A DNA stretch of 64,000 nt from NCBI RefSeq assembly GCF_045037415.1, contig NZ_CP173438.1. The stretch is one strand, 5' to 3'. This DNA comes from Escherichia coli. Lineage in GTDB: Bacteria > Pseudomonadota > Gammaproteobacteria > Enterobacterales > Enterobacteriaceae. Made by a program: the position numbers. Shown here one piece after another: positions 34,685 through 37,600 of the stretch (the stretch's first letter is position 1; each line of letters starts with the position of its first letter).

Positions 34685-37600
34685 ATCGACTTCGAAGGTT
34701 CGAATCCTTCCCCCACCACCATCACTCGATTCCATTATCAAACCTTCGGCTTCTCCCCCATTCGCCGTAAAAACTGCTGCTGTAGCCTCAACAAATCCGC
34801 TAACGTCAACAACTGATAATCCAGACCTTGCTGGCTGGCAATTTGCGCAATAATGCGGCTTAGCGCCGAATAATGGCGATGATGCCAGTGAGGAAACAGA
34901 TGATGGGTAAGGTGCAGATTAATCCCACCCAGCCAGTAGCCAAGCCATGCAGGTTGCGGCGTCCAATCAAAGGTGGTAGCAAAGGTATGCGCCAGTCTGC
35001 CCACGGGCATTTTGCCCTCTTCTGGTGGTAACTGCGTATGTCCCTTCGCCCAGTGCGTTCCAATAATCAACGTCACAAAAATCAATGACGCCAGCAGCTG
35101 GCTGAGCAGATAAGTCAGCAGGATGGTCATAAAACTAAAATCAGACAAAAGCCAGGGAATTATCAGACACAGCGCACAATGCGCCAGTTTCCCGGCTAAG
35201 AAATATCCCCAGCCAGCAAAGCCTCGCAGGGCCAGATGTCGCGTGACCGGCGTAAACCCTGCGCGATCGAGCCAGTCCACTACCCAGATATACCAGGGAA
35301 AGGTGAGCGCGGCGACCAGTGGCCAATAGCGATGTTGCTGGCGCATAAAAGGTCGCCACCGTTGCCACGGCGTCTGGCGAAGAATGCCATTTTCTGCTGT
35401 ATCTGGATCGTAAAATTCAATATTGGTAAAACCGTGATGAAAGCGAACGTGGCGCACCCGCCAGCAGTCCGGATCTAGCCCCATAGGAAAAGCAACCCAC
35501 CGGTTAAGCCGGGCATTGGTCTTTTTACCACGCAAAAACGCATCATGCGAAGCGTCATGCACCACATTGACCGCTAACAACATGGCGCAAAACATCATCG
35601 CGAGATACCACAACAGATACAGTCCCCATTGACGTTGAAATAACGCCAGTAAGTAACAGGAGAAACAAGCAATAATCAACACCGCCATTTTGACGAATGC
35701 CCATCCGTCGGCATACCGATGATCGCCTGATTTCGCCAGATAAACTTTCGTACCGCTTTGCAGTTGTTTCACCAGTTGTGGATCATCGGCAGGAAAAGTG
35801 ATTAACCTGTCGGGATTAAACAGGTTCATACTGTTTCCTTAGCGATTTACGTCCTACGCCGATTACAAATAACAGGCAATGGGCCAGCAGAATACCCACT
35901 AATCCCTTCCAGAGCAGAGTACTCCATGAACACATATAGACAATAAAATAGAGCAGTGACAACGTCACAGAGCACCACAAAATCATACCCCAATGCTGCC
36001 CGTCGCTCATGCCCCCCAGCGCAACGGAGCCTGCCGCCAGCAGAACAAATAATACGGCTTGCTCGCTGGTAATAAACTCAATGCCATAGCCATATTGTTG
36101 AATGTAGCCAAGCACCAGCATAAACAGCAGGATCACCCCTGCCCCTACCGCCCATGGAGAACTCTGGTAGCGACCTTCAATCGCTTTGCCAAATGAGCAA
36201 AAGCCCATTAAGCGTAAAAATGGCAGATTACTCTCGCGCATCGGGTTACAGGACAAGCGACTATTTTTTACGCCGTAGCCTACGTCGTATTCCGGCCCGG
36301 CACTATACGAACCGAAAAGTTTATCCCACAACAAAAAGGTGCCACCGTAATTGGTATCGGCATATTGCTTTTGATTCAGATGATGGACGCGATGATGCGA
36401 AGGCGTGATCAGCACTTTTTCCAGCCAGCCCAGTTTCGGCGTTAGTGCGTTATGGTTAAAAAATTGCCAACTATAGTGAATAATAGAAACCGCCAAAAAG
36501 ACCTGTAACGGCACACCAAGCATCGCCAGCAGCATAAAAAACGGGATTGAGGTTAACGAGGAGTACCACGAGTTCCGCACGCCTAATGACAGGTTGTAGT
36601 GTTCCCCCTGATGATGCACCACATGTACCGCCCACAGCGGGCGCATTTCGTGATGCCAGCGATGTAGCCAGTAAAAGCCGAAATCCCACGCCAGGATAGT
36701 AAACAACCACAGCAGGATCACCGGCACATTATCAAACAGTCCAAGGCTGAAGTGATTGACCACCAGGCCATAGCAGAGCACTTCCAGGCAGCGAAATAAC
36801 CACAGCATCATATGACCGGAGTTGATATTAAAAATAACGTCCAGCCAGTCCACTTTTTGCCGCCCGGTGAATTGCAACACGCCCGCTTCGGCTAACACCA
36901 ACAGCACCATCGATATGATGGGGAATAATAAATCACTCATATTGTGTCTTCCTTTTCTCGCATGTTGCGCATATCCAACCGCAAATCGACGCCAGCAACG
37001 CGCCGCCTACTAAATCGATAAATAAATGTCTGCGTAATTGCAGAATCGAAAAGGCGATTGCTATCGCCCAGACCACGCTCATTAGCGTCAGCCAACGGTT
37101 CCCCTTTTTAGCAATCGCCCATACCGCCAACAGCGTTAGCGCGGCGTGTAAGGAGGGAAAACAGTTCTGGCTTGAGTCAATGGCGATCAGCCTGTTGAGT
37201 GCGCCCGCGGATATCCCCATCTGATCAAACGAGGGATAATGCATGGTTGTGGGCCAGAGAAGATAAAATACGCCAGCCACCAGTGCGGAAATTTGCATTG
37301 AACGGGCCAGCCAGCGCAGGTGGCAAAGTGGCGTGGATAAATAACCTAACGGCACAATGAAAAAAAACGAGAGATACAGCCACACAGCGGAGGGGGAAAA
37401 CGCAATCAAATTATCAATTATTGACGGTGTTAATTGATATCCCTCACCTTGCAGGTAGTCGCTAAAGTTGTAGATAACCCCAACAGTTCCCCAGCCCAGC
37501 AGCATCTGTTTCAGGCGTAGCAGTGAATTGCTCATTCCCGCCCCCACTGACGCACAATGCGCCGCCGCTTGGCTGTAAAAGAGACTGGCACAGTTTGCAG

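Follow-up and report, generated by a model that had tools for sequence, protein, structure and literature searches.

A desaturase, a hydroxylase and a PAP2-like protein at the distal end of a seven-gene Escherichia coli operon: a possible membrane tailoring module for a dedicated lipid

What could a membrane desaturase, a membrane hydroxylase and a PAP2-like protein, encoded side by side, contribute to Escherichia coli, a species whose K-12-type strains, to our knowledge, are devoid of an O2-dependent acyl desaturase? The question is raised by three successive minus-strand open reading frames (ORFs) at positions 34738-37535 of a 64,000-nucleotide stretch of an E. coli chromosome (contig NZ_CP173438.1 of assembly GCF_045037415.1; hereafter the window). 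The original prediction had placed a membrane trio at these same coordinates. We find that the trio is not self-contained but is the end of a seven-gene operon with a conserved four-gene core upstream. The reading we favour, with a probability of roughly 0.45, is that it serves as a membrane tailoring module for a dedicated lipid or lipid-like metabolite built by this core. The three genes, in their order in the operon, are:

36933-37535, minus strand: PAP2_3 (Aur1/Ipt1-like) protein with six transmembrane (TM) segments, 200 amino acids (aa); PAP2_3 PF14378 E 2.2e-9, PAP2 PF01569 E 9.8e-8
35816-36940, minus strand: membrane di-iron FA_hydroxylase / sterol desaturase family protein, 374 aa; PF04116 E 1.8e-28
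34738-35829, minus strand: membrane di-iron protein of the fatty-acid desaturase family, 363 aa, encoded last in the operon; PF00487 E 2.4e-23

The family assignments made by the original prediction proved correct: Pfam returns PF00487, PF04116 and PF14378/PF01569, and RefSeq (NZ_CP124467.1, an identical genome) names the products phosphatase PAP2 family, sterol desaturase family and fatty acid desaturase family proteins. Moreover, the comparison of E. coli with E. whittamii yielded a dN/dS of 0.11-0.15 for each trio gene, indicating purifying selection. Given the Pfam matches, the invariant motifs described below, the low dN/dS and the overlaps between the reading frames, the trio consists of genuine genes under selection and not of chance ORFs.

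The trio constitutes the distal three genes of a co-directional, minus-strand operon at 34738-41619. Upstream of it, four genes encode the soluble core:

40612-41619, minus strand: core gene 1, FabH-like beta-ketoacyl synthase III (KAS III), 335 aa; PRK07204 332 bits, FabH TIGR00747 193 bits
39599-40615, minus strand: core gene 2, extended short-chain dehydrogenase/reductase (SDR) / 3-beta-hydroxysteroid dehydrogenase (3-beta-HSD)-type NAD(P)-dependent oxidoreductase, 338 aa; nearest curated family OleD
38815-39621, minus strand: core gene 3, metallo-beta-lactamase (MBL)-fold metallo-hydrolase of the lactonase-like branch, 268 aa; HxHxDH present
37532-38818, minus strand: core gene 4, F390-synthetase-related (TIGR02304) PaaK-type adenylate-forming enzyme, 428 aa; 748.5 bits versus 251.9

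The gene order is thus FabH-like KAS III, OleD-like reductase, MBL hydrolase, F390/PaaK-type adenylating enzyme, PAP2-like protein, hydroxylase and desaturase, and from KAS III to the desaturase successive genes overlap by 4, 23, 4, 4, 8 and 14 nucleotides (nt). The only terminator-like hairpin found lies upstream of the operon, 3' of narI. Because of the overlaps of 4-23 nt and of this hairpin just upstream, the seven genes represent one translationally coupled operon. In the same RefSeq record, core genes are annotated as a 3-oxoacyl-ACP (acyl carrier protein) synthase III domain protein, an MBL fold metallo-hydrolase and an F390 synthetase-related protein. Of 5426 complete E. coli genomes, 672 (~12%) contain the entire 7.4-kb stretch, and the trio, when queried alone, is found in 672-673; the counts for operon and trio therefore agree.

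The association of the trio with the core extends beyond E. coli. One genome per species was scanned with the F390-related protein, which yielded 37 species-level loci whose gene content was determined by a tblastn matrix. The four soluble genes are present in the same order in all 37, from genera including Escherichia, Pseudomonas, Snodgrassella, Chromobacterium, Janthinobacterium, Cupriavidus and Gracilibacillus; the last, a Gram-positive, carries the core at 35-42% identity and without the trio. The PAP2-like and hydroxylase genes follow the core in 20 of the 37 loci, usually together with one or two desaturase paralogues, and the trio genes, whether all or some of them are present, adjoin the core in each of these 20. 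Independent look-ups likewise revealed the seven genes, their order unchanged, in the Pseudomonas syringae group, in Providencia and in one further record.

In 14 of the 37 loci the core is followed by a glycosyltransferase module. It comprises a second OleD-like reductase (OleD, E 4e-33), an HpnI-like Glyco_transf_21 (GT21) enzyme (PF13506, E 2e-31), a 189-aa protein that gave no family match, and an MGT-type family 1 glycosyltransferase (GT1). Two of the 37 loci contain both modules in a 12-gene array:

L025, 9186-19029 (uncultured Enterobacteriaceae): 12-gene super-cluster of core, PAP2, hydroxylase, two desaturases, second reductase, GT21, 189-aa protein and GT1
L026, 9186-19044 (Cedecea sp.): super-cluster of the same 12 genes

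Since L025 and L026 hold both, the idea that the trio and the glycosyltransferase module are mutually exclusive alternatives was rejected, and the tailoring modules are additive. As read from gene content, with the core constant while the PAP2/hydroxylase and glycosyltransferase modules swap or combine, this is the pattern of a scaffold with interchangeable decorations that need a hydroxyl acceptor. The hydroxylase homologues of L025 (~11873-12985) and of another locus, L030 (~12069-13277), show an in-frame stop at a conserved Trp, possibly a sequencing error or the mark of a pseudogene. A third recurring accessory beside the core is an ATP-grasp protein that belongs to the PRK06849 family, itself uncharacterised; its presence points to a ligation in some pathway variants. 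It was found at four loci:

L004, 11181-12329 (Neisseria sp.): PRK06849-like ATP-grasp gene
L036, 12664-13848 (Vitreoscilla): PRK06849-like ATP-grasp gene
L039, 5830-6978 (Aquitalea): PRK06849-like ATP-grasp gene
L040, 6191-7327 (Gracilibacillus): PRK06849-like ATP-grasp gene

Which reaction does the PAP2-like protein catalyse? Its start is the ATG at 37535, a longer TTG-initiated ORF reaching to 37697 not being the annotated start, and PAP2_3 outscores PAP2 in Pfam. Among 21-25 homologues from other species the residues P127-S-L-H130 and R169-H170-x3-D174-x3-G178 are invariant, and in 18-21 homologues no invariant Lys or Arg-Pro that could form the C1 motif KxxxxxxRP was found upstream of PSLH. 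When compared with the C2 (PSGH) and C3 (SRX5HX3D) motifs, PSLH130 and RH170xxxD174 are kept, whereas the Gly of C2 and the Ser-Arg six residues before the C3 His are absent. The protein retains only the His, His and Asp of the phospho-histidine machinery. This is the pattern of Aur1 and of the inositol phosphorylceramide (IPC) and sphingomyelin synthases, namely a conserved His-His-Asp triad, a lost C1 and a six-TM core. In line with this, a Foldseek search of the Protein Data Bank (PDB) with the AlphaFold2 (AF2) model, which has a predicted local distance difference test (pLDDT) score of 93.3, ranked an IPC synthase-ceramide complex (E 3e-5), Aur1-Kei1 (E 2.8e-4) and human SMSr (E 2e-3) highest (entries 9vj4, 9ivc and 8ijq). 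LpxE came fourth (E 0.05), and PgpB, LPP1 and soluble acid phosphatases all scored above 0.1. Orthologues in AFDB50/UniProt are automatically named inositol phosphorylceramide synthase or Aur1/Ipt1 domain proteins. The charges of the loops predict that the H130/H170/D174 triad faces the periplasm, with both termini inside.

In addition, a profile search returned 6381 representative relatives of the PAP2-like protein, some of which occur as gene fusions. One is fused to the F390-related enzyme and adjoined by MBL and SDR genes (P0250), one to a desaturase beside a GH3-type adenylating enzyme (P0350), and two to FA_hydroxylases (P0373 and P0383). A PAP2-like/desaturase fusion shares a metagenomic locus (L044, 1642-12363) with an adenylating enzyme of GH3 type, another desaturase, a Rieske protein and two B12-binding radical SAM enzymes; here, too, an uncharacterised cluster of lipid type pairs this PAP2 subfamily with an adenylating enzyme. 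Since C1 is absent, the modelled fold resembles IPC synthase and SMSr, the triad is predicted to be periplasmic, and fusions link the protein to adenylating and di-iron enzymes, we regard it as a candidate phospho-head-group transferase rather than a phosphatase, and favour the view that it would act on the same molecule as these enzymes. Thus, of the two functions originally offered, lipid phosphatase or head-group transferase, the second gains from the missing C1 and the best-matching folds, whereas the first loses ground, with the phosphatases ranking lower. We do not know E. coli to make ceramide, and the acceptor of such a transferase must consequently differ from ceramide.

The periplasmic placement of the active site also bears on a different role, in which the trio would remodel lipopolysaccharide or lipid A, with the PAP2-like protein acting like LpxE, LpxF or LpxT on lipid A phosphates from the periplasmic side, while the di-iron enzymes would modify the acyl chains of lipid A. 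LpxE is the sole sequence-level PDB match as well as the fourth structural one, and the cluster occurs in extraintestinal pathogenic lineages. However, the LpxE matches are non-significant (E 0.1-0.5 at the sequence level) and rank below IPC synthase and SMSr, and the C1 motif that phosphatases need is missing. Moreover, a cytosolic core of KAS III, reductase, MBL protein and adenylating enzyme has no place in lipid A remodelling, and the Gram-positive Gracilibacillus possesses the cluster without the trio. We therefore consider this role highly improbable.

Both di-iron enzymes carry complete sets of His boxes with conserved spacing, as originally predicted. Those of the desaturase, H91-D-x-x-H95, H127-x3-H131-H132 and H306-x2-H309-H310, are invariant in 23-25 homologues from other species, and their sequences (H91DASH95, H127VRFHH132 and H306LTHH310), of the form HX3H / HX3HH / HX2HH, match the three-box, eight-His pattern of PF00487 (HX3-4H, HX2-3HH, H/QX2-3HH). 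Members of this family have four TM helices in two hairpins; in the E. coli protein, hydrophobic hairpins at 40-94 and 210-259 lie on either side of the boxes in keeping with this. Front-end (Delta4/5/6/8) desaturases have an HX3HH second box and a Q/HX2HH third box and are usually fused to cytochrome b5. The E. coli protein has the box pattern of the Delta6-like front-end group, with a third box that starts with H and not Q, and it is devoid of a cytochrome b5 domain, with ~40 aa before the first TM segment and no HPGG. Clusters with two desaturases contain types A and B, and E. coli keeps type B alone, its protein being 53-55% identical to type B as compared to 48% to type A. The boxes of the hydroxylase, H93RWHH97, H106VVHH110 and H183RVHH187, correspond to the PF04116 pattern (HX3-4H, HX2-3HH and HX2-3HH) and are invariant in 17-23 homologues, the conserved positions being H93-R-x-H96-H97, H106-x2-H109-H110 and H183-x2-H186-H187. 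Beyond its catalytic domain (residues ~78-211), the protein carries an additional C-terminal membrane bundle at 259-365 that comprises roughly four TM helices and is poorly conserved.

Sequence and profile searches of the PDB gave no matches for either enzyme, and a fold search of the PDB with the AF2 model of the hydroxylase (pLDDT 80) returned meaningless transporter matches alone. None of the curated desaturase families reached its cut-off, the best being CrtR with 21 bits and, for a paralogue, DesB with 33 bits. The best curated family of the hydroxylase, OlsE (NF052566, E 1.2e-18), scored 67.5 bits against a cut-off of 475, so that the protein falls outside OlsE. Hence, the assignment to PF00487 and PF04116 stands, whereas curated models, PDB searches and the hydroxylase fold search placed neither enzyme in a characterised subfamily.

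These enzymes might also be viewed as remodelling the acyl chains of ordinary phospholipids (or of ornithine lipids or lipid A) with O2, the PAP2-like protein being a lipid phosphate phosphatase and the linkage to the upstream genes incidental or regulatory. Unsaturated or hydroxylated fatty acids would then be accessible aerobically to the carrier lineages. The best-known bacterial members of both di-iron families act on acyl-lipids, OlsE being the best curated match of the hydroxylase, and the desaturase is listed in source databases as acyl-CoA or linoleoyl-CoA desaturase. In addition, a lone desaturase, 51% identical, is found on a Budvicia contig (L046, 9001-10143) and a lone hydroxylase, also 51% identical, in a Brucellaceae genome (L005, 10001-11134), both without core genes within 9-10 kb. 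Against this stand the translational coupling of the trio to the core and its position next to it in 20 of 20 loci, the fusions of the PAP2-like protein to the adenylating enzyme, a desaturase or a hydroxylase, the swapping or combination of the trio with the glycosyltransferase module, the missing C1 motif, and curated-family scores that all remain far below cut-off. On balance, acyl remodelling appears rather unlikely to us. Nothing links the trio to the bulk synthesis of unsaturated fatty acids, a role at most implicit in the original prediction; operon coupling, module swapping and fusions point to a dedicated product.

What, then, would the core build? KAS III, whose GTG start codon (41619) is preceded at a distance of 8 nt by a GAAGGAG Shine-Dalgarno sequence, has an intact Cys-His-Asn triad. 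The core reductase, with GxxGxxG and YxxxK intact, matches the two OleD-type 2-alkyl-3-oxoalkanoate reductase models with E values of 2.5e-44 and 1.4e-42, at 146-152 bits against a cut-off of 580. The MBL hydrolase matches pyridoxolactonase and AiiA/AttM (E 5e-15 to 4e-10, all below cut-off), and members of distant clusters match AttM at 1e-22 to 1e-27. The adenylating enzyme falls squarely within TIGR02304, with an intact SSGTSG P-loop and C-terminal Lys, is 62-67% identical to Pseudomonas and Neisseria proteins, and has PaaK, AjiA1 and NatL2 as its nearest solved relatives.

The prominence of OleD among these matches raises the possibility that the core is a non-orthologous analogue of OleABCD. 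It would carry out a condensation of the head-to-head or Claisen type and reduce the keto group; the adenylating enzyme would then form a beta-lactone with ATP, and the MBL protein would act as the lactonase that opens or decarboxylates it. The resulting long-chain olefin, ketone or beta-lactone would be oxidised by the di-iron enzymes and decorated by the PAP2-like protein or glycosyltransferases. The best curated matches of the core reductase are both OleD models, the second reductase of the glycosyltransferase module also matches OleD, the MBL protein belongs to the lactonase branch, and the order of the core genes corresponds one for one to the four Ole activities. However, the OleD scores reach roughly one quarter of the curated cut-off, the condensing enzyme is matched by FabH-type KAS III models and not by OleA, and unrelated folds replace OleC (ANL, PF00501) and OleB (alpha/beta hydrolase); no OleA, OleB or OleC family match was obtained, the three enzymes other than the reductase differing in fold. 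Moreover, we know of no report of hydrocarbon production by E. coli B2 strains. An Ole-like product is thus quite improbable.

The same four folds could alternatively be arranged by an alkylquinolone-like logic to yield a diffusible secondary metabolite or signal. The ligase would activate an acid, KAS III would extend it with malonyl, the MBL protein would act as a PqsE-like thioesterase and the reductase would reduce the beta-keto acid; the trio would oxidise or modify a hydrophobic small molecule and no structural lipid. The core folds parallel, by analogy with the Pseudomonas quinolone signal (PQS) pathway, PqsA, PqsD and PqsE with a reductase added, the usual substrates of PaaK-like enzymes are aryl or small acids, and an ATP-grasp ligase is a recurrent accessory gene. 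A Pseudomonas syringae pv. actinidiae mutant of reduced virulence, described below, would also fit if the gene hit were the orthologue of the adenylating enzyme gene. By contrast, three to four integral-membrane enzymes of lipid type together with a GT21 enzyme of the ceramide-glucosyltransferase family would be odd for a soluble signal, the E. coli cluster contains no exporter, regulator or receptor gene, and the MBL protein is as lactonase-like as it is thioesterase-like. We therefore regard a diffusible product as unlikely.

Taken together, operon coupling, conserved gene order, module exchange, fusions, the fold of the PAP2-like protein, purifying selection and the equal counts of operon and trio argue for a dedicated product. 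In the pathway that we propose, the core would build a 3-oxo/3-hydroxy-alkyl scaffold from acyl thioesters, the carboxylate of which it would activate or couple. The di-iron enzymes would next act on the cytoplasmic side of the inner membrane with O2 and reducing equivalents, the FA_hydroxylase member adding a hydroxyl to the alkyl chain of the scaffold and the front-end-type desaturase introducing a double bond. The scaffold would then be flipped across the membrane, where it would meet the periplasmic His-His-Asp triad of the PAP2-like protein. The latter would move a phospho-alcohol head group from a glycerophospholipid donor to a free hydroxyl on the scaffold, by analogy with the action of IPC and sphingomyelin synthases on ceramide. 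In other species, glycosylation would be an alternative or additional decoration. What the scaffold is, in which order the steps proceed and which donor and acceptor the transferase uses are inferences; the cytoplasmic sidedness of the di-iron enzymes is presumed from knowledge of their families.

Several points weigh against a dedicated lipid. The fold match of the PAP2-like protein to IPC synthase and SMSr is modest (TM-score 0.52-0.58, 15-18% identity), its only sequence-level PDB match, LpxE, is non-significant, and it scores 20 bits against a cut-off of 480 with the curated model of bacterial IPC synthase (phosphoinositol-dihydroceramide synthase), of which it is no orthologue. The fold search with the hydroxylase was uninformative, as stated above. 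The chemistry of the core is ambiguous, since Ole-like, PQS-like and LuxCDE-like schemes all fit its four folds. With the PAP2 site periplasmic and the adenylating enzyme cytoplasmic there can be no direct hand-over, so that a flipping step is required. Because the lone Budvicia desaturase and Brucellaceae hydroxylase exist, the di-iron enzymes may accept ordinary acyl chains. Finally, no paper on the operon was found in open-access full text and bioRxiv.

How is the cluster distributed within E. coli, and how did it come to its site? No match to the trio was obtained in 4753 of the 5426 complete genomes (~88%), which fits with the lack of a desaturase in K-12-type strains and bears out the view that the trio is unusual for the species. 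It is no rarity of one strain, being present in the 672 E. coli genomes, many Enterobacterales, Pseudomonas and Betaproteobacteria, where the cluster genes bear generic annotations. Carriers among named records include ST131 O25b:H4, SE15, O25:H1 and O6:K2:H1 strains, which we take to be phylogroup B2 lineages; K-12 is without the operon. The trio query matched 674 places in E. coli genomes, two of them on plasmid records, and a partial second copy of the trio is present on chromosome NZ_CP107128.1. In E. coli FXCREC145 (NZ_CM135823.1) the IS30-like element ISApl1 splits the sterol-desaturase-family gene (window ~35816-36940) and thereby provides a natural knockout.

The window represents a segment of the E. 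coli chromosome with galU, rssB, rssA, ychJ, purU, tRNA-Tyr and, from 41747, narI, and the operon is located between narI and tRNA-Tyr:

34637-34721, plus strand: tRNA-Tyr (GTA), the other border of the operon, ending 16 nt before the stop codon of the desaturase gene
41620-41746, minus strand: narI-operon intergenic region with a tandem repeat, a hairpin with a T-run and, as read from the sequence, a possible promoter

In E. coli strains without the cluster, this slot reads purU, tRNA-Tyr, RtT, tRNA-Tyr and narI, the spacer being otherwise empty. The source strain has one tRNA-Tyr and no RtT small RNA (sRNA) beside purU, other E. coli have two tRNA-Tyr and RtT, and related Escherichia species carrying the cluster have one or two tRNA-Tyr copies here. 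The GC content of the operon (0.49-0.54) equals that of the flanks, no integrase ORF was found among the ORFs of the window or in the annotation, and the narI-cluster-tRNA-Tyr/purU slot is also filled in other Escherichia, Kosakonia, an Enterobacter sp., Superficieibacter and an enterobacterial metagenome-assembled genome. A tRNA-associated integrative island was consequently rejected (no integrase, normal composition, a slot syntenic in other genera), and we read the cluster as an old resident of the slot that most E. coli have lost rather than a recent island. Directly after the stop codon of narI, a perfect tandem 16-nt repeat, ttatctaaaccaaaca x2, occupies 41746-41715 (minus strand). It is followed by the terminator-like hairpin of narI, tcggcgg-ttacaca-ctgccga, and a T-run (41714-41689, minus strand). 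A consensus scan scored no promoter in the spacer between narI and the KAS III gene; a candidate operon promoter possibly lies 3' of the hairpin, as judged by eye. Rfam revealed neither a riboswitch nor an sRNA upstream of the operon, the tRNA being the only match.

The proteins of the trio are uncharacterised members of well-known superfamilies that have already been annotated generically, and open-access full text and bioRxiv seem to contain no description of the operon as a whole. A link to ether lipids was considered and rejected, as ladderane comparative genomics (PMC2649909) and the myxobacterial elb operon (PMC9131029) involve different gene sets. In P. syringae pv. actinidiae, the Tn5 mutant TBc29 (IYO_RS29540, 'coenzyme F390 synthetase') displayed a reduced virulence score on kiwifruit seedlings (PMC9823363, Table 1); IYO_RS29540 might be a gene of the seven-gene cluster, which the P. 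syringae group carries. Should a distinct lipid be made, major extraintestinal pathogenic E. coli (ST131, O6:K2:H1-type) would carry an unrecognised O2-dependent membrane lipid pathway, and so would many Proteobacteria associated with plants, insects and humans. Its possible effects concern the properties of the envelope, recognition by the host through a ceramide- or phosphoinositide-like head group, or resistance to antibiotics and complement, and it would provide the first function for TIGR02304, a family with thousands of members. E. coli as a species is not uniformly devoid of O2-dependent lipid desaturases.

How does the operon compare with known systems? With OleABCD the core shares a condensing enzyme, a 3-beta-HSD-type ketoreductase, an ATP-dependent carboxylate activation and a hydrolase in the same logical order. 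However, only the reductase is homologous, at a score below cut-off, the other enzymes being PaaK/F390-type and not OleC, MBL and not alpha/beta fold, and FabH-like and not OleA. The desaturase resembles the front-end (Delta6-like, COG3239) enzymes in its PF00487 domain, its HX3H/HX3HH/HX2HH boxes and its two hydrophobic hairpins; it differs from them by the missing cytochrome b5 domain, by scores below the curated cut-offs and by being encoded with a core that is not a fatty acid synthase. The hydroxylase has the same three His boxes as OlsE and other PF04116 enzymes (Sur2, Scs7, CrtZ and AGMO), whereas its score with OlsE is far below cut-off, it carries an additional C-terminal four-helix membrane domain, and the operon contains no ornithine-lipid genes olsA/olsB. 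With Aur1 IPC synthase and SMSr, the PAP2-like protein shares the six-TM PAP2 fold, the His of PSxH, the His and Asp of HxxxD and the absence of the C1 phosphatase motif; it differs in size (200 aa versus 260-400), in having no Kei1-like partner and in its identity of 15-18%.

The broadest resemblance concerns the eukaryotic sphingolipid tailoring set. As the fullest clusters join families that finish eukaryotic sphingolipids to a non-sphingolipid core, the 12-gene form might, as a speculative and in our estimation unlikely extension of the proposed pathway, encode a route to sphingolipid-like membrane lipids independent of serine palmitoyltransferase (SPT), in Enterobacterales, Pseudomonas and Betaproteobacteria including ST131. 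In place of SPT, KDSR and ceramide synthase, this route would employ a Claisen-type KAS III, the ketoreductase and the adenylating enzyme. The IPC/sphingomyelin-synthase-like PAP2 protein, the GT21 enzyme, the C-hydroxylase and the front-end desaturases would finish the scaffold to a ceramide-mimicking phospho- or glycolipid at the surface. The clusters differ from the eukaryotic set in having neither SPT nor another amine-introducing enzyme and in their unrelated scaffold enzymes, and the resemblance holds at the family level only. At this level, the IPC synthase, GT21 glucosylceramide synthase, long-chain base C4-hydroxylase and Delta4/Delta8 desaturases of eukaryotes have their counterparts in the PAP2_3, Glyco_transf_21, FA_hydroxylase and two FA_desaturase proteins of L025 and L026.

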